Source of the DNA: a virus
Taxonomy: Duplodnaviria; Caudoviricetes
Reading direction: 5' to 3' (one strand)
Virus record (IMG/VR): IMGVR_UViG_3300006467_000134
Coordinates: 32,001-96,000 of that record
Length of the DNA: 64,000 nt
Below are positions 8,116-59,048 of this stretch, piece after piece. The notes beneath the pieces were generated by a model. That model saw only the letters and a program-made list of their open reading frames with translations. It was not told the origin of the DNA and did not search any database. Positions within the stretch are counted from its first letter, which is position 1. Every line of letters starts with the position of its first letter. The translations under genes and the position numbers were made by a program.

Positions 8116-9277
8116 AGAAGTCCTCGAAGCTTGTAGGGTATTGAATGTGGATCTCTTGAGCCTCGGCAGGTGTTAGTTGCCCAGGAACTGGGAGATCGGT
8201 TTCAAGATCATAGTAGATCTTTACCAATCGCTGGAACGTCTTGTTGTTCAAGTACCCAACTTCGAATTGGCGATCCATACGACCAGGTCGCTTGAAGGCT
8301 GGGTCCAAGTTATCTGGGTGATTCGAGGTGAAGATCAAAATACTACCTTCCCCTGCCGTTGGTCCATCGATTAGGTTTAGTAGAGTACTGGTCATCGCTG
8401 ACAGAGGAACTTCATCGATTTCGTCTTGATCTTCCGCATTAAACGGGTCTTCCTCTTTATTAGAGGTTTTACGCTTTTGGGTTGCCTTCTGACAATCGAA
8501 GTCCTCAAAGACAACCACGCAGTCACCCAACTGCAATGCGTTATCAACGTTCCATACGTACTGGGTAAATACGTACAGATCTCGTTGTAGGTAATTGGCA
8601 ATCGCCAAACCCAAAGAGCTCTTACCAGTTCCAGGAGGACCATAAAAGAGATAACCACGTCGATAAGGAATACCTCGGTGCTCATACCATTCCCTGTTGT
8701 TAACAAACCAATCTAAGTCTGCTTTGAGCTCGTCTGAGAAGTCAATGGCCAAGTCTTCCAGACGACGAGTCTTCAGGGTTTTTCTTTCATTGTCGTTGAA
8801 CTTGGCCTTCAATGGAGTAACACTCCGGGCTTTGTTAATGTAGTCCTGTACCTCCTGCTTGACGGCATTACGACGCCAGCCAAAGATATCGATGTGAATA
8901 CTATAGACTACTGGAGGATCGCCTTTCTTGGCCATTTGCATCTCACGTCGGTTGTGATAATAACTCACGTAACACCAACGTGTGAATCCCCATCGGAATC
9001 CGCCAGGGACTTTTTCCTTAAAGTCGGCATCCTCAATGTCAAAGAATGTTCCAAAACTGCTATTACCGTGTTTCTCCATCAAGTATTTACACGCCGGCAC
9101 GTAGTCAGGGGAGCCACTCTCAAAGCGGAGAGTGATGGTCGTGTAATAAGAAAACCTATCCCACACGTATGCGGGATAGGATCGAATCTGATAGAGGAAA
9201 CTGGTTAGCAAGGCCATTACGATACCACCAGACATAAACTGGTTGTTCTGAAGCTGGTTTGCAAACCATTCCCACAT
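7961..9277 (-). CDS. BCS1-like membrane-anchored AAA+ ATPase
   Basis: N-terminal TM (NQFMSGG...); WYEHRGIPYRRGYLFYGPPGTGKSS; Walker B VFEDFD; LLNLIDG; TSNHPDNLDPAFKRPGRMD. Confidence 0.85.
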   Translation of the reverse strand: MWEWFANQLQNNQFMSGGIVMALLTSFLYQIRSYPAYVWDRFSYYTTITLRFESGSPDYVPACKYLMEKHGNSSFGTFFDIEDADFKEKVPGGFRWGFTRWCYVSYYHNRREMQMAKKGDPPVVYSIHIDIFGWRRNAVKQEVQDYINKARSVTPLKAKFNDNERKTLKTRRLEDLAIDFSDELKADLDWFVNNREWYEHRGIPYRRGYLFYGPPGTGKSSLGLAIANYLQRDLYVFTQYVWNVDNALQLGDCVVVFEDFDCQKATQKRKTSNKEEDPFNAEDQDEIDEVPLSAMTSTLLNLIDGPTAGEGSILIFTSNHPDNLDPAFKRPGRMDRQFEVGYLNNKTFQRLVKIYYDLETDLPVPGQLTPAEAQEIHIQYPTSFEDFYEQLQRKAASVLQRGRLVGQGIPTGTGGLQGDIDKPGGNRDPKAITLENEV

Positions 9278-9278
9278 A

Positions 9279-10901
9279 CTATACTCCTACTTTGTCAATA
9301 AGGATTGTTTGAGCTCGGTCTTGAATATCCAGCCAGTCCTGCATGAAGACTTCGCCGTCCAGGAACACTACCTTCAGTTCACCGCCCTCCTCTTCGTCCC
9401 GGGTACAGGATTGCTGAAGAGTGTAGTTTCCATTGGTACCATTCACTCGAAGCAAGCCACAAGCAGACTTTTTGGTTCCACTGTCAGTGACTGGATCTTT
9501 GAACAACTCGTGTTCTACTCCGTCTACCTGAGCCCAGGTTGCCTTACATGCTAATCCGAAAGTATCGCGAGTATTGTACTGATAAGTGAAACTTCCAATA
9601 CCAAGCACAACGTTGGTCGTGGCGAAATCACGTTCCATCAGTCGTTCGAAGATTTCTGTGGCTCGATCATAAGTGATTGCATCGCCGTAAATACAACCAA
9701 CATGTGGATCCAGCTCTTTGAAACCTTTGGAATTGAAGGTAGTACCAAACTCTTCAGCCAGTAGGCGGACAACTCCCTTAATCTCAGGCTCTTTGATTTC
9801 TCGTCCTTCCAATGTCACGTAGCCATCGGAACACTTCATAGCGTCTGCCCGATAGTGAATCAAAGACAGGTAAAGATCCTGGTCTTTCTTCAACTCTCGT
9901 CGAGCTTCCTCGCAGGTTCCATCGTAATCCATAGTACGATATCCGCACAGGATTAGTACTGGATCGCCAGAATCAGGTCGGAAGACGACTTTCCCGTCTC
10001 GCTTCATGATCTTGTCCTTCAGGTGAGGGGCAATCTCAAGCAGCACTTTCCAAAGGTCCCACGTATCGATGACAATACTGATGAAACCTTCTGGATAAAG
10101 CTCCGAGATCAGTCGATCTACAGTGTGGAGCTCGTTTACCTTACCACCAGCACACATCACGGCATGTTCAGTCGCTGGCACGGAAACAGACGTATCCCGG
10201 GGAGCCTTGTACCAGTGCCGAACCGCGGCCTTACCTGGTAGAGTGTCACTGCCTTTGAAGAACAACAGGTGACCCATGTCAGTGGTAATCGAAGATTCCA
10301 CACTGCTCATACCACGCATCGAGAAGTTGTGCCCTTGGAAGGGAACAAAATCAGGGTTGCCAGTACGCTCAGCATAGTCACTCATCAGCTCCCAGAAACG
10401 ACGAGCAATGGTAGCCGCTGTGATTGGGTTCCAAATAGTATTCTGACATACGGTTTCAATCGCATTGGTTAACCAGCCAAAGTTTGGATCAGTATTCTCA
10501 ATAGTAGCCAGTGGAACACCAATTGGACACAATACGCCTTCGGGAAGAGCCTTGATACGAAGTGGGAGGTACCCCAGGTCATGGAGTTCACCATAACGTG
10601 AGACGTCCACAGCACCTGGTCCAAAGTACTCGTCGAAGTATTCTTTGAGCTCTGCCAGAACCCGGGCCTTTGGACGATCAAAGAAATTCGTGTTGAACTC
10701 AACTACCAAGTACTTCAGCATGAAATACTGTAGACCAAAGTTCACAACATGGTTCACACCTGGAATCCGGCTGGTACGAGGAGTAATGTTGGCATTTACG
10801 TACTCCGTGTTTTCCGGGTATTGTGGTGGGTGAGATATCTTGTAGGCATCTGCCAGAATGATTGGGTTGATGCGAAGGTCACTGTATTCAAATCGTGTCA
10901 T
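9279..10901 (-). CDS. nadV: Nicotinamide phosphoribosyltransferase-like protein (Nampt/NadV family; likely Namat of NARP1)
   Basis: ADAYKISH, SVPATEHAVM, SIVIDTWD, RPDSGDP, IYGDAIT, FKDPVTDSGTKKSA; start MTRFEY coupled by ATGA to upstream gene. Confidence 0.9.
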   Translation of the reverse strand: MTRFEYSDLRINPIILADAYKISHPPQYPENTEYVNANITPRTSRIPGVNHVVNFGLQYFMLKYLVVEFNTNFFDRPKARVLAELKEYFDEYFGPGAVDVSRYGELHDLGYLPLRIKALPEGVLCPIGVPLATIENTDPNFGWLTNAIETVCQNTIWNPITAATIARRFWELMSDYAERTGNPDFVPFQGHNFSMRGMSSVESSITTDMGHLLFFKGSDTLPGKAAVRHWYKAPRDTSVSVPATEHAVMCAGGKVNELHTVDRLISELYPEGFISIVIDTWDLWKVLLEIAPHLKDKIMKRDGKVVFRPDSGDPVLILCGYRTMDYDGTCEEARRELKKDQDLYLSLIHYRADAMKCSDGYVTLEGREIKEPEIKGVVRLLAEEFGTTFNSKGFKELDPHVGCIYGDAITYDRATEIFERLMERDFATTNVVLGIGSFTYQYNTRDTFGLACKATWAQVDGVEHELFKDPVTDSGTKKSACGLLRVNGTNGNYTLQQSCTRDEEEGGELKVVFLDGEVFMQDWLDIQDRAQTILIDKVGV

Positions 10902-53234: not shown

Positions 53235-53796
53235 GTCGTTCCTTAATCTTTTTAGTGGTTTCCCAACCTAACTTATAAAGCACCCATTCCAACCCATACC
53301 AAATTCTAAGTCCATCTATTACTGGATTAAGATAATTAGTCATTGGACAGAATTTGTAGCCAGCTAAGTGTTTCGGGATCAGCTTTTTCATTGATCGGTG
53401 GTGAAGATCATGTTCCTCGGCGGATTGAAATAATCCTACTCGTTGCATGAACTTTATAGACCAATGAAGCTGTCTTTGAGGAACATGAGACCAGCGATGA
53501 ATTAGATTACCAACACTGGTAAATAGAACCCCTAACCAGAGAATCCTTGGTGCTCCAACCAACCACAGTATAGACGCTAAGGGTACCGCGGCTATTACCG
53601 ATGATTTTATGTTTGTCCAGGGTGTTCCGAGCAGCATGGCTGTTGGCTGACGATGGTGAAGATCGTTGTCCTCGGCTATTGAGTCAAGGAAGCTTAGAGA
53701 ATAATTCCCATCTAAGTAACGATCTTCCCACCAATGAACAGCACCTGAAATGAGATCGGCCAGTAACCAAGCTGCCAGAATCTCAATTAGGATCAT
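53212..53796 (-). CDS. CarF/TMEM189(PEDS1)/FAD4-family membrane lipid desaturase
   Basis: ADLISGAVHWWED, LHHRQP, NLIHRWSH, EHDLHH, FCPMTNYLNP, WYGLE: eight-His pattern of the family. Confidence 0.85.
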   Translation of the reverse strand: MILIEILAAWLLADLISGAVHWWEDRYLDGNYSLSFLDSIAEDNDLHHRQPTAMLLGTPWTNIKSSVIAAVPLASILWLVGAPRILWLGVLFTSVGNLIHRWSHVPQRQLHWSIKFMQRVGLFQSAEEHDLHHRSMKKLIPKHLAGYKFCPMTNYLNPVIDGLRIWYGLEWVLYKLGWETTKKIKERHEKADHL

Positions 53797-54380
53797 GCCT
53801 TCACCAACATCACAATCTCGGCATCAGCCAACACAGCGGTATCTGTTACCAGATACAGGTTTGCCTTGCTATAAAGCATCAGCATTTCTGCGTCAGTAGG
53901 CTCGTAGTGGTTGTTTGTAGTCGTGAAGCTGAACAGTTCCTGAGGATCATTGTAGCTGCCGTCAAAATAGACGGTGATTACATCTCCGTTGAACTCGTCA
54001 GGAGCATAGAAGCTGCCACCATGATATGGTGCGAAGTTCTGTACGTCAGAATCAGTCTCTCCAGATGCAATCGAGAAGATCAACTCTGATCCACCTTGAA
54101 GGCTATCTGTGCTTCCTGCGGTTCCAGAGGCCTTACAGCTACTGATAAACTGCCTAACCAGAGCGTAGGTTAGAGCATCACCTGACCCACTACTAGCTAA
54201 AGCATCGTCGTCGTGAATTGCCTCAGTTCCGCTTCGAAGTGACTGTACAACCCATTTACCGTCCGTAACAAGACGAACTTCTGCTTGTGTGAGGTCGATG
54301 TCTACGGTGTGTCCCGCAGAGTTATTGAAGATCAGGTTACACCCATCAAGGGTGTAACTTTCGTATGAACAACATGCCAT
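53793..54380 (-). CDS. Hypothetical acidic protein (likely structural)
   Basis: 195 aa; AGGAG RBS. Confidence 0.6.
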   Translation of the reverse strand: MACCSYESYTLDGCNLIFNNSAGHTVDIDLTQAEVRLVTDGKWVVQSLRSGTEAIHDDDALASSGSGDALTYALVRQFISSCKASGTAGSTDSLQGGSELIFSIASGETDSDVQNFAPYHGGSFYAPDEFNGDVITVYFDGSYNDPQELFSFTTTNNHYEPTDAEMLMLYSKANLYLVTDTAVLADAEIVMLVKA

Positions 54381-54416: not shown

Positions 54417-56588
54417 CTATGCCCAAGTATGGGAAACGCCCGGAGTTCCAGCTACAACGACCCACAAGGTTGATGTCACCGCTTCCAGAGTCAGGGCCGA
54501 ATTAGCTGCCATCGTGATTGACCCGCCAGTACCGGCAGTTGTCGAATCAGCCCCACCGACTACCTGAACACTTGCTGGCTGGGCAATCGTCACCGTTCCG
54601 CCTGCTGAAATATATTGGTGTCTTTGTCCAACTTCTGCAGTTGTCGGCAACGTGTAGGTCGTTGTACCAGTGGCGGAAATGTACGACTCACCCGGCAGCG
54701 TCGTTTTGTCAGCGTTTCGAACCTGAGTCTTTGGCGTCGACAGTCCTCGATAGAATCCAGACACTCGCCCAGACACATCGTTGTAGGAGTTTTGCAGCGA
54801 CAGGACGTTTCCGCTGGACTTCACGCCATAGCTGCCGTCTTGGTCATCGCCAAGGAACTTAAACCACTCGTAGGGCCTGCTAGGGTTCGACGCGATAGAT
54901 GTATCGTGCGTACTGATCCTGAATCGCTCATTCCCGTTAATGTCAAAGAACTTGAACGCGTTGACGTTTCCTTCTGTGTTCGGATTCGGGAGAAACTGTA
55001 AAACAGAATTAACCTTATCGTATTCTACGGTAAACGCTTTTTCTCGCGTTCCTAGGTTAAGTTTATCGGTGAAAATTTCGGCGTTGGCAATGTCATAAAA
55101 TGAATAGCGGTTAGGTCCAATCATAAGACAAGACAGCTCACTAAGCATCATTGCGGACAAGTAGTCATTTGCAGTATCTGGCAAATGCGTTCCGTCACCT
55201 TCCCAGCTCAAATCTGTTAATGCCGAATACGTCTTAAAATGCCGGTAGGCGTCAAACCAATACAGCCCACGATCCTCAGCATATTGGCGAACAAGTGCGT
55301 TTTCTGCGTATGTGTCGTTCTCAGTTTCGGCCCCTGTGTCTGAACTGTCAGGCGATGTCAGTATCAATACAAATTCAGTGTTCGCCGCAGCAATAACTGC
55401 ATCTAGATAATTTATGAATCCGCCTGTTTCATAGCGGGCAACATTCTCCTTGTTCTCGCAGAACCAAAGCGTTGGACACACGTCTGCCAACATCGCATCA
55501 CGAGTAGAAGTATCCCAGTCCAAATAATCCTCAAAATTCATGCCGCCGCGTTGCATACTGTGTTCAACGAAAGCGTTCTTCGACAGAGCATTGAAGATTA
55601 CCCGAGTTATCCTAACACGACCGCCTGATACGTGGACCGCCTTGATACCTCGTGAGCCGAAATCACTCCTAAGAAGGATTCGACCGTATGTCGTGGTTGG
55701 GTTGTCGCAGTCAATCGACGTGTAGCCTGTGATGTCAGACCATGAACTTGGCGATCCTTCGTCGGTGCTTTCCTGCAACTTGAAGATTCCAGCTCCCGAT
55801 TCCTTCACGTAATAGACAACGATGAAATCGCATTCTGGGTTGTTTCCATTTACGCTATAGGCAGCTTCACCTCCACTACCAATAGAAGTATAGGTTCCAG
55901 CGAAGTTTACTTCGTAGTCGTATTCCTTGCCGCTGGTGCCATCTGCATCCCATGCGTCGCCAGACAGCGACTTAGTTTGAAGGTAAATATCTTTTTCAAA
56001 AGTCGCCGCCCACTTGGCTCGAAATTGGTTGTATACTTTTGGGGCAACACTGTCTCCGGTTGAACCAGTTACAAGCTGTGCCTTTAGCGTGGCAGTGATT
56101 GTCCCTGTTGCCGGTGTGGTTGGCGTTTGGTCGGTGGCCATCTCGCAAGTGAAAGTCGTGCTACTTGGAACCGTCAAGATTCGCCAACCGTTGTTGTAGT
56201 CAGTTTCGTTTGCACCAGAGATCAGCACCGAATCGCCAACAATGAACAGGTGGTCAGTCGCGGTCGTGACAGTCATAGTTGTGCCGGATCGCGTGATACT
56301 CGATACGGAAACTGCAGATTGCGTAGTATTCACAATGTCCAGTTTACGCATAGTACGTTTGAAATTCTTCAAAGGTGCGTTGGCATCTACTAAGAAAGAG
56401 GAGTCTCTAAGAGTTTCTGCAATCTGCTTGAGGTTCTCGTTTAGGAGAATTTTTCCCTCCATAGAGTCAATTGACATCTCTTGTCGAAAGAGTCCCAACA
56501 TCTCATACGCAATACCATGTGACTGCATAAGAGGAGTAGGAGAGGTTGCTCCGGGGGAGGCGTCTGGGTAACGTGTCCAGTCTGACAT
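54417..56588 (-). CDS. Virion fibre/decoration protein with SGNH/GDSL esterase-like domain
   Basis: N-terminal 60 aa paralogous to upstream gene; SITRSG...HLF.VGD.V.ISGA....YN module; TGDSV and DGTH motifs. Confidence 0.7.
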   Translation of the reverse strand: MSDWTRYPDASPGATSPTPLMQSHGIAYEMLGLFRQEMSIDSMEGKILLNENLKQIAETLRDSSFLVDANAPLKNFKRTMRKLDIVNTTQSAVSVSSITRSGTTMTVTTATDHLFIVGDSVLISGANETDYNNGWRILTVPSSTTFTCEMATDQTPTTPATGTITATLKAQLVTGSTGDSVAPKVYNQFRAKWAATFEKDIYLQTKSLSGDAWDADGTSGKEYDYEVNFAGTYTSIGSGGEAAYSVNGNNPECDFIVVYYVKESGAGIFKLQESTDEGSPSSWSDITGYTSIDCDNPTTTYGRILLRSDFGSRGIKAVHVSGGRVRITRVIFNALSKNAFVEHSMQRGGMNFEDYLDWDTSTRDAMLADVCPTLWFCENKENVARYETGGFINYLDAVIAAANTEFVLILTSPDSSDTGAETENDTYAENALVRQYAEDRGLYWFDAYRHFKTYSALTDLSWEGDGTHLPDTANDYLSAMMLSELSCLMIGPNRYSFYDIANAEIFTDKLNLGTREKAFTVEYDKVNSVLQFLPNPNTEGNVNAFKFFDINGNERFRISTHDTSIASNPSRPYEWFKFLGDDQDGSYGVKSSGNVLSLQNSYNDVSGRVSGFYRGLSTPKTQVRNADKTTLPGESYISATGTTTYTLPTTAEVGQRHQYISAGGTVTIAQPASVQVVGGADSTTAGTGGSITMAANSALTLEAVTSTLWVVVAGTPGVSHTWA

Positions 56589-56599
56589 TAGTAATTCCT

Positions 56600-56633
56600 A
56601 AAAACAAAAAGAGAGCCTCTATTACAGAGGCTC
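56600..56633 (-). terminator. Intrinsic terminator after the 155-aa decoration gene
   Basis: gagcctct-5 nt-agaggctc followed on minus strand by tctttttgttttt. Confidence 0.75.
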
Positions 56634-56639
56634 AGTGAC

Positions 56640-57107
56640 TTACGCCAAAATATCCCATTCGCCGGTTGCACCTGCTACCAAAGTAACAGAAGCGTTATCA
56701 GCCAACGAAGCAAGAGTTCCATTGATCGTAGCAGCAGTGGAGACCGTCCACGAGTTACCGGATACGTTGTTGATCCGCAGGATCTTGCCAACATCAGCAG
56801 CAGCTGGGCTGTGCAGAGTCAAAGTTTTGCTCGCACCGGCAGTCAGTCGAATGTAGGTACCAAAGTCAGCGGATACCGTAGTGTAATCATCTGTCTTAGA
56901 TTGAATCGTGAGTTTGAACAAGCTCAGCATCGTCTCAGCGATCTGCTTAAAGTTCTCGTTCAAAAGAATTTTGCCGTTTTCCGAGTCTACCGAGTCTGTC
57001 ATGTTGAACAGAGCCAACATTTCATACGCATATCCATTTGCAGACATGAACGTAGTAGGCGAGGTAGCTTGGGCAGTGGCGTCATCAAAACCGGGCCAAA
57101 CTGGCAT
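56640..57107 (-). CDS. Head decoration/short fibre protein
   Basis: Near capsid gene; SKTDDYT...TLTL...VGK.L.I.N fibre-like C-terminal domain. Confidence 0.65.
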   Translation of the reverse strand: MPVWPGFDDATAQATSPTTFMSANGYAYEMLALFNMTDSVDSENGKILLNENFKQIAETMLSLFKLTIQSKTDDYTTVSADFGTYIRLTAGASKTLTLHSPAAADVGKILRINNVSGNSWTVSTAATINGTLASLADNASVTLVAGATGEWDILA

Positions 57108-57130
57108 AGTAAAGGACCTTTCAAAGTTAA

Positions 57131-57207
57131 ATGGCTGCCATCATCAGGCACTGCCCACCACGGTCAGTGCGAAACAAGGCAGTCCGAAGACTGCCCTGCT
57201 TTTCGGC
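57131..57207 (-). ncRNA. Type II hammerhead ribozyme (HH2), predicted cleavage UUC| between 57171 and 57170
   Basis: GCC-GAAA-AGCAGGGCAGUC(UUCG)GACUGCCUUGUU-UC|GCACUG..CAGUGC-CUGAUGA-U-GGC; loop GUGGU can pair with downstream GCCAU. Confidence 0.85.
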
Positions 57208-57209
57208 TT

Positions 57210-57875
57210 TTATTCAGGGAAATTTAGGTAGGCAAATTCACCAAACAGCTCTTTTGCTTTTTCATCATAAGCCTTTGCAGCTTCCAGTGCTGTATTGAAC
57301 CTACCAAGATGGTGAATTTTTCCCTTATGCTGGAGTCTAGCAATATATTGATACTTGGTTTTGTTCTTCATTAGGCGTTTAGTTACTCCTTTATAACCAG
57401 ATTTACAGTTTTTCTGCGGACCTGAATTTAAAACGTTTTGAGTCAAAGAGCATAAACGCAAGTTCGACTTTCTATTGTTTAGTGGGTTTCTATCAATATG
57501 ATCCACTATTTCATCGGGAAGAAGGGATCTTCCTAAAGAAAGCTCCATTACCAATCTATGAAGTTTCGTCGGTCTGGGTCTATGTGAAAAACCGTACCCA
57601 TTTTGTAGGTGCCAGTTCTGCTTATAAAGTGTATCCCAATATTCGGGATCTACCAAAAGCTTATCTCCTGCTTTAGTGTATATAACAGATTTATCTTCTT
57701 GATCTGGAAAATTCAAAGGGAGATAAGGACTAATATCTTTGGCCTTTTTATCGTAGGCTCTGGCAGCTTCCTCAGGGGTTGGAAATGTGCCAAGATAATG
57801 GCGTTTCTTGTCTACTTGAATTTCAGCGGCAAATTTCCCATCTTTTTTGGGCCATACACCACGTAACTTTTTCAT
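57210..57875 (-). CDS. HNH homing endonuclease with two AP2 DNA-binding domains
   Basis: AP2 (YLGTF.TPEEAARAYD..LNFP), HNH (LHRLVM...DHIDRNPLNNRKSNLR), AP2 (SGYKGV...LGRF.TALEAAKAYD...GEFAYLNFP). Confidence 0.92.
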   Translation of the reverse strand: MKKLRGVWPKKDGKFAAEIQVDKKRHYLGTFPTPEEAARAYDKKAKDISPYLPLNFPDQEDKSVIYTKAGDKLLVDPEYWDTLYKQNWHLQNGYGFSHRPRPTKLHRLVMELSLGRSLLPDEIVDHIDRNPLNNRKSNLRLCSLTQNVLNSGPQKNCKSGYKGVTKRLMKNKTKYQYIARLQHKGKIHHLGRFNTALEAAKAYDEKAKELFGEFAYLNFPE

Positions 57876-57889
57876 TTTACTTCCTTTGT

Positions 57890-57962
57890 AACCTATGACT
57901 CATCAGGAGGCTTTCGGTCGATAGCCTCGACTAAGAAGACAGTAAGTCTTCTTAGTTTCGTC
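57890..57962 (-). ncRNA. Type II hammerhead ribozyme (HH1), predicted cleavage GUC| between 57929 and 57928
   Basis: GAC-GAAA-CUAAGAAGAC(UUACU)GUCUUCUUAG-UC|GAGGCU..AGCCUC-CUGAUGA-GUC; loop GACC can pair with downstream GGUU. Confidence 0.9.
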
Positions 57963-57989
57963 TTACTTGAAATTATCAAGTATTTAAAC

Positions 57990-59048
57990 CTAACTAGGGT
58001 CAGTCGGGTTGTGATTAACTGGAGCCGTACCAGCCGAGCAGATGCCAGTAGCTGGCGTTCCGCACAGACGCAGGTTCTTAACCAGGACAACCATGTCAGG
58101 GTTTTCAACCATGAAGTCAGCTTCCCACCACATGGTGTATTCGAAGCTGTCACAACGAGGCTTACGTTCACGCTCAATCGACAATTCGCGACCGGTAACG
58201 TAGATCAGGTTGCTCAATGGCGTGTAAACCATGTAAGTACCGTCAGTTTCCCCGCCACCATTGTCCAGGTTTTCTGGCCAGTTGTTAACGCGGAAGACAG
58301 ATTCACCAAGTGGGTTGACGCCTTGGCCGCCACTCAGGATGATCTGATCACCCAGGTTGGTAGCTCGGCTGGTCAACTGCTGTACCCATCGGTTGTACAG
58401 GCGAGGACCCAGTACCCATCGATACTGATCCAATTCGCTCAAATACTCAACAGGGATGCGGTTCTGGATTTCGAACAACAGTTCGGTAGAGATACCAGCA
58501 CCAGCAGCGTCGATAATTTGGGTGGAGGGAACGCAAGACTTCAACAGACGGATGAAACCGTCGTTAACGCCCAACAGGTTGTTCAGATCGGATTGACTGT
58601 CGCCAGTAGGAATAGCGGTGTCGCCCATAACAGCGGCACGTTCCATGTCAACAGCAATACGCTTCTGGAATTGACCCAGCAACGTTTGGGTTACTTGCTC
58701 CCGTTCGACGTTGTAACGCAGGAAGTCACTCTTTACCGAAAAGAAGCTTCCATACTTTTCCAAGTCGTAGGTCAGCATCGAGTCGGTAGGACGAGATTCC
58801 TGAGGGCAGCTCGTAGCATGAGCACCCTGAGAAACAACACCACCGAGGTCCAGACGGTGGATCTTACCTTTACGGTTGTCCACTCGCATGGTACGAATAT
58901 TTTGCAACAGGTTTGAGGTGTTGCGAACCATGTCGAAGAAACGGTCGGACTGAGTCCGATCCAACATGGCGTTAGGGTTGGTTGCTTCGCTGATCGGGAT
59001 TTGACAGCCCTTAATCAGATCAACCATTTCAAGTTTGCCACTCATCAA
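57990..59048 (-). CDS. Major capsid protein (HK97 fold)
   Basis: LDRTQSDRF....NTS.LL; DME..A..GD; NDGF; position after protease/scaffold. Confidence 0.9.
   Translation of the reverse strand: MMSGKLEMVDLIKGCQIPISEATNPNAMLDRTQSDRFFDMVRNTSNLLQNIRTMRVDNRKGKIHRLDLGGVVSQGAHATSCPQESRPTDSMLTYDLEKYGSFFSVKSDFLRYNVEREQVTQTLLGQFQKRIAVDMERAAVMGDTAIPTGDSQSDLNNLLGVNDGFIRLLKSCVPSTQIIDAAGAGISTELLFEIQNRIPVEYLSELDQYRWVLGPRLYNRWVQQLTSRATNLGDQIILSGGQGVNPLGESVFRVNNWPENLDNGGGETDGTYMVYTPLSNLIYVTGRELSIERERKPRCDSFEYTMWWEADFMVENPDMVVLVKNLRLCGTPATGICSAGTAPVNHNPTDPS

Follow-up and report, generated by a model that had tools for sequence, protein, structure and literature searches.

The locus lies on a complete 105,608-bp phage genome from IMG/VR with direct terminal repeats, and the window analyzed here (64 kb) covers its bases 32001-96000. 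The minus strand is the coding strand of all genes in this neighborhood. The major capsid gene (352 aa; 57990..59048, minus strand), which belongs to PHROG 1623 and weakly matches the P2-family capsid, is followed directly after its stop codon by a canonical type II hammerhead, HH1 (57897..57962, minus strand), with a GUC triplet and predicted cleavage after C57929. HH1 was recognized with a structural descriptor, and its orthologues carry compensatory changes. Between HH1 and a second hammerhead, HH2 (77 nt; 57131..57207, minus strand), sits an AP2-HNH-AP2 gene resembling homing endonucleases (221 aa; 57210..57875, minus strand; Pfam AP2 and HNH_3, PHROG 99), and a search of the phage's own genome showed that this is its only HNH_3 gene. 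Downstream of HH2 lies the gene for a 155-aa protein, p155 (56640..57107, minus strand), without a Pfam or PHROG match; the label "decoration protein", given to this gene in a preliminary description of the DNA, thus finds no support in either collection. A terminator scan detected an intrinsic terminator after p155 (56613..56633, minus strand), which consists of GAGCCUCUGUAAUAGAGGCUC and then a U tract, and the next open reading frame encodes a 723-aa protein (54417..56588, minus strand). p155 and the 723-aa protein have a common N-terminal stretch of about 60 aa with 57% identity, and might be head or fibre proteins that serve as alternatives on a shared anchor domain.

HH2 begins where the HNH gene ends: the stop codon TAA (57212..57210) is followed by AA and then by G57207, the first nucleotide of the ribozyme. 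Its parts follow in the order stem II 3' strand, GAA, stem III hairpin, C17, stem I hairpin, CUGAUGA, a U insert, stem II 5' strand and pseudoknot tail. The invariant hammerhead core is present as CUGAUGA at 57147..57141 and GAA at 57204..57202 (G12, A13 and A14), A57201 is A15.1 and U57172 is U16.1; all 13 core nucleotides are canonical. Stem II contains 3 bp (G57207-C57206-C57205 with G57139-G57138-C57137). Stem III, evident from both sequence and fold (57172..57201, minus strand), pairs 57201..57189 with 57172..57184; including A15.1-U16.1, it comprises 13 bp capped by a C(UUCG)G tetraloop, and the pairs nearest the core are weak (A-U, A-U, G-U). The preliminary description had given the same helix as 12 bp plus the core A-U pair, without mentioning its two G-U wobbles (G57199-U57174 and G57196-U57177). 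Stem I is formed by GCACUG (57170..57165) and CAGUGC (57153..57148), with 6 bp and an 11-nt loop. Stems I, II and III are free of mismatches.

Applying hammerhead numbering to this sequence and fold places the predicted scissile bond 3' of C57171 (C17), between 57171 and 57170 on the minus strand. The A57201-U57172 pair is followed by C57171 at position H17, and the resulting triplet, UUC, satisfies the NUH rule. The p155 ATG is at 57107, so that the predicted new 5' end, G57170, is 63 nt upstream of it; this distance and the 2 nt separating HH2 from the HNH stop codon are exactly those proposed earlier. G57139-C57205 and G57170-C57148 are paired next to the core, and an extra U (57140, minus strand) parts A9 from G10.1, which is a departure from the strict consensus. 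Base for base, the sequence matches the previously proposed stem I, CUGAUGA, single inserted U and 3-bp stem II (GGC/GCC). One nucleotide past stem II, in the tail AGCCAU, begins the 3' element GCCAU (57135..57131), which can pair with GUGGU of loop I (57161..57157) in the register of the subclass pseudoknot described below. The complementarity that had been pointed out between these two elements is real, with five pairs, two of them G-U, although for HH2 alone the pseudoknot is no better than with a shuffled tail (5 vs 4.5).

The minimum-energy fold of 57212..57125 is a three-way junction without any imposed constraint (-36.8 kcal/mol, z -3.4). Both this fold and the cmscan alignment, which covers model positions 1-66, show type II topology, in which stems I and III are capped and stem II is open. 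The Rfam model RF02276 (Hammerhead_II) aligns over its whole length to 57208..57129 and scores 35.1 bits, corresponding to E values of 1.1e-4 in a 3.2-kb search and 8.7e-7 in the genome, and the pseudoknot core of HH2, UGG/CCA, is that of the Rfam consensus. As the curated gathering cut-off of RF02276 is 37 bits, HH2 falls 1.9 bits short, which is why a default Rfam search is silent on it; at the gathering threshold, no Rfam family matched anywhere in the window. Two further searches were made. Our own strict type II descriptor, which demands the core, no fewer than 4 bp in stems I and III and no fewer than 3 bp in stem II, matched the 105.6-kb genome at HH1 and HH2 and nowhere else, compared with 0.03 matches per shuffled genome. 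A covariance model, R1, was trained on 21 other phage hammerheads with a U insert, HH2 being left out; in the 64-kb window its single match was HH2 (57208..57128, 33.1 bits, E 1.6e-6). Two covariance models, the descriptor scan and the predicted fold thus all point to a type II hammerhead that has an additional U, UUC at the cleavage site and a pseudoknot joining loop I to the 3' tail, and they support the interpretation given in the preliminary description. We consider it probable that HH2 is a functional-looking type II hammerhead of the pseudoknot-stabilized family RF02276, belonging to a common phage subclass and predicted to cleave itself.

These searches also bear on whether HH2 is only an intrinsic terminator or stabilizer hairpin with hammerhead-like flanks that arose by chance. 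A long, G+C-rich hairpin directly past a stop codon would suit such a role, and stem III had been expected to mimic a terminator. However, a simple terminator scan flagged only the antisense strand as terminator-like, and the sense strand was left unflagged because no free U tract follows the hairpin. Moreover, the full ribozyme is found by both covariance models and by a descriptor with an expectation of 0.03 per genome, and the genuine terminator stands one gene downstream (56633..56613, minus strand). A plain hairpin is therefore exceedingly improbable. Nevertheless, with family members scoring below the Rfam cut-off, the HH2 hairpin could be annotated as something else.

The inserted U of HH2 was then compared with other viral hammerheads. 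IMG/VR was scanned with the pattern CCGAAA...TC...CUGAUGAUGG, followed by the descriptor filter, which yielded more than 30 clean type II hammerheads with the same insertion and the common layout GCC-GAAA...CUGAUGA-U-GGC-A-[tail]. Within the subset run through Rfam, nine exceeded the gathering cut-off (38-65 bits), and the one Rfam alignment inspected (L017, 65 bits) shares the "ug" insertion when set against the model. When 21 members were aligned without HH2, strong covariation appeared in every helix, with 88% of cells paired; none of 500 shuffles reached the observed value, and slid registers gave 28-43% paired. The pseudoknot between loop I and the tail was 94% paired, and all five of its pairs had changed on both sides. 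Sequences were selected on stems I-III, so that the covariation counts of these stems are biased upward, whereas the pseudoknot played no part in the selection. Because R1, built from this subclass alignment, finds HH2 as its single match in the window, we place HH2 in the same subclass. The inserted U is a common trait of that subclass and is not novel. Accordingly, what had been called a variant core does contain the additional U and the UUC triplet, but it represents a common subclass inside Rfam Hammerhead_II and not a new form.

De la Pena and Flores reportedly analyzed, in 2001, an extra nucleotide at A9/G10.1 in a viroid hammerhead, CChMVd (+) (cited in PMC1636495 and PMC4209133). An extra nucleotide between A9 and G10.1 is also conserved in the hammerheads of Penelope-like elements (PMC4209133). 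HH2 resembles both in having a one-nucleotide insertion at exactly this position; they are, however, type I/III ribozymes of eukaryotes or viroids without a 3'-tail pseudoknot, whereas the insert of HH2 is a U in a phage type II hammerhead. Relative to RF02276 as a whole, HH2 has the same topology, the same core, the UGG/CCA pseudoknot directly past stem II and the same phage context. It differs in its score (35.1 bits against the 37-bit cut-off), in its unusually long stem III (13 bp with a UUCG loop) and in its 15.2-16.2 pair, where A-U replaces C-G and the triplet is consequently UUC in place of GUC. Perreault et al., 2011 (PMC3088659) described the type II topology, the pseudoknot between loop I and the 3' tail and the importance of the latter for cleavage speed, and a crystal structure of a pseudoknot type II hammerhead exists (PMC11300833). 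HH2 is an ordinary member of this known ribozyme family, with no new chemistry or architecture.

Subclass members tend to start close to the end of a gene: 27 of 36 (IMG/VR loci L005-L121) begin between -2 and +14 nt from the stop codon of the upstream open reading frame, and HH2 does likewise. Such a position would suit an element that defines the 3' terminus of the preceding message. A type III hammerhead at 57175..57116 was considered as an alternative and dropped, as its helices consist of G-U pairs only.

IMG/VR and JGI metagenomes were searched for relatives of the locus by means of its HNH, capsid and p155 proteins, which yielded just two other lineages. With the locus as query, blastn matched none of 50,697 phage records, and a search of p155 against 5.8 billion proteins returned only p155 itself and the form in a sister lineage. 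Both lineages (L002/L209-L218 and L004/L123/L124) carry an HH1 orthologue after the capsid stop codon. In the three HH1 copies (window 57897-57962, minus strand; L002 2079-2148; L004 4069-4127), the sequences of stem I, stem III and the pseudoknot differ and the helices are kept, that is, the changes are compensatory. As HH1 occupies the same spot with its helices preserved in three lineages, it is both old and conserved in these phages. Standard annotation misses it, since its Rfam score is no more than 16.9 bits and falls under type III. The antisense of HH1 (57897-57982, plus strand) weakly matches the IS1222 frameshift element (Rfam, 26.8 bits, below the cut-off), a match that most likely just mirrors the HH1 hairpins.

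The history of HH2 differs from that of HH1. Three independent assemblies of the window lineage carry HH2 without a single difference, and there is no covariation at its orthologous site, where these three copies are the same and the sister lineage (L002/L209-L218) has no hammerhead. The sister proteins are 84-88% identical to those of the window for capsid and p155 and 45% identical for HNH. Behind its HNH gene, the sister lineage has a short hairpin; ahead of the gene, between HH1 and HNH (L002 2167-2195), it has a perfect TTGACT-17-TATAAT promoter. No such promoter was found ahead of HNH in the window, suggesting that the window HNH gene relies on read-through from the late operon. In the pairwise DNA alignment, homology falls right after the HH1 tail and returns about 10 nt past the HH2 tail; HH2 therefore lies within a fast-changing HNH cassette. 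The third lineage (L004) is without the HNH, p155 and 723-aa genes, and its capsid gene and HH1 are followed by a homologue of the window gene at 53793..54380. HH1 and HH2 also come from different sublineages, as model R1 matches HH2 and not HH1.

The idea that the HNH cassette had split a single post-capsid hammerhead was rejected, since HH1 is complete and orthologous both with and without HNH. HH2 is of a different sublineage and lies inside the non-homologous cassette, and a chimeric stem II would have a central mismatch, all of which also speaks against such a split. In at least ten sister assemblies (L002 2992-3054, the same in L209-L218), the p155 homologue has AGG at the position of the window's ATG. 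The 20 codons before the next ATG are nevertheless kept with synonymous changes, which suggests an ATT start one codon upstream.

The absence of HH2 from the sister lineage indicates that the ribozyme is dispensable, and HH2 might be a decaying or very slow relic that arrived with the HNH cassette, its stem III being merely a 3' stabilizer or a weak pause site. In line with this, its Rfam score is under the cut-off, its pseudoknot contains two G-U pairs, the A-U, A-U and G-U pairs at the base of stem III could slow cleavage, and its triplet is rare: the subclass has GUC in 29 members, CUC in two, GUU in one and UUC in one of 33, namely HH2. On the other hand, UUC is among the listed and accepted active NUH sites (PMC3138052). 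Decay would also have to be reconciled with the intact invariant core, the mismatch-free stems I, II and III, the consensus UGG/CCA of the pseudoknot and the identical sequence in three assemblies. We therefore regard a relic as unlikely and favor a self-cleaving HH2.

From established hammerhead chemistry, we infer how the two ribozymes would act. The late capsid operon transcript, made from the minus strand, would carry HH2, which would fold and cut itself 3' of C57171. The upstream product would then end with the stop codon, GCCGAAA, the 13-bp UUCG hairpin and UUC bearing a 2',3'-cyclic phosphate. G57170 would carry the 5'-OH of the p155 mRNA, with the stem I hairpin sealing this end 63 nt ahead of the start codon; beyond this hairpin, the p155 leader is not notably structured. 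As stem II has only 3 bp, the products are expected to part quickly, making the cut effectively irreversible. Together with cleavage of HH1 after C57929, cleavage of HH2 would release a monocistronic HNH mRNA of about 758 nt with the stem III hairpin as its 3' terminus. Most likely, then, the HNH message is cut out of the long capsid-operon transcript by HH1 and HH2. The cuts would probably serve to separate a mobile endonuclease gene from its structural neighbors on both sides, so that each message would have its own ends and its own stability. In Desulfovibrio vulgaris, cleavage by type II hammerheads has been demonstrated in vivo (PMC8782182), and the processing of polycistronic phage RNA into units of differing stability is a proposed, still unproven role of such ribozymes (PMC3088659, PMC6765202).

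Two ribozymes bracketing one mobile-type gene also bring to mind an intron-like element. Capsid RNA ending in a 2',3'-cyclic phosphate would be joined to the 5'-OH of p155 RNA, or the HNH RNA would be circularized, through reversal of the hammerhead reaction or by a host RtcB-type ligase. By established hammerhead chemistry, both cuts would leave ligatable ends, and this possibility was raised by Perreault et al. for clustered hammerheads; yet the same authors sought spliced and circular products and found none (PMC3088659). In our locus, the chimeric hammerheads required would have a central mismatch, G-A or U-C, in the 3-bp stem II. Furthermore, the capsid and p155 genes are separate open reading frames with their own ribosome-binding sites, so that there is no evident gain from joining them. 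We consider ligation very improbable, and release of a separate HNH mRNA remains our preferred reading.

It is conceivable, though we give it a low probability, that HNH and HH2 travel together as a homing-endonuclease cassette insulated by ribozymes, which brings its own 3' ribozyme and lands beside a resident post-capsid ribozyme. If this were true, the cassette could sit in an essential late operon with the mRNAs of its neighbors undisturbed, and would be a functional, protein-free counterpart of homing endonucleases carried by introns. In general, AP2-HNH genes do not come with hammerheads, since 80 other AP2-HNH loci (256 kb) contained no hammerhead of any type. Our literature search on hammerheads together with homing endonucleases or HNH in phages found nothing relevant.

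Group I intron-encoded HNH homing endonucleases occur in phage structural genes, where the catalytic RNA removes the gene from the host message. The HH1/HH2 locus is alike in having a mobile endonuclease gene inside late genes with catalytic RNA alongside; it differs in lacking both an intron fold and exon ligation, and its gene stands between open reading frames, not within one. RNase III and RNase E sites in polycistronic phage mRNAs, such as the R sites of T7, also provide intercistronic cuts and hairpin-protected ends. Cleavage by HH2, in contrast, is predicted to be protein-independent and to leave 2',3'-cyclic phosphate and 5'-OH ends. The closest likeness in arrangement is to prophages, in which hammerheads often flank single genes of varying identity and cleavage was shown in vitro and in E. 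coli (PMC3088659). In prophage clusters such as that around ardA in Agrobacterium tumefaciens, two ribozymes likewise bracket one accessory gene in a long phage transcript, and processing into single-gene mRNAs was proposed as their role (PMC3088659). Here, however, the ribozymes enclose an AP2-HNH endonuclease gene, which has the capsid gene on one side and a head-region gene on the other, and the two ribozymes are of different sublineages.

For the question of what the many phage hammerheads do, this locus is a clean and testable case. In a complete phage genome, the only two type II hammerheads that the descriptor found stand on either side of the single homing-endonuclease gene, amid the capsid operon. 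The sister lineage offers a natural comparison, having the same gene order with a promoter and a plain hairpin in place of HH2. The pair around the sole homing-endonuclease gene is a good experimental case and no new kind of system. The locus also illustrates that the Rfam cut-off misses real family members, HH2 by 1.9 bits and HH1 at 16.9 bits under the wrong type.

Hammerheads of the U-insert type II subclass often occur in pairs or triplets with one small open reading frame between them (L027, L029, L041, L046, L101 and L113). The genes bracketed by these other pairs had no common function and were small open reading frames without Pfam or PHROG names, in agreement with the varying identity that Perreault et al. 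noted for single prophage genes flanked by hammerheads (PMC3088659). The viral contig of L027, which bears two type II hammerheads, also holds a ROOL RNA (382 bits) and a tRNA gene array (8921-10279).
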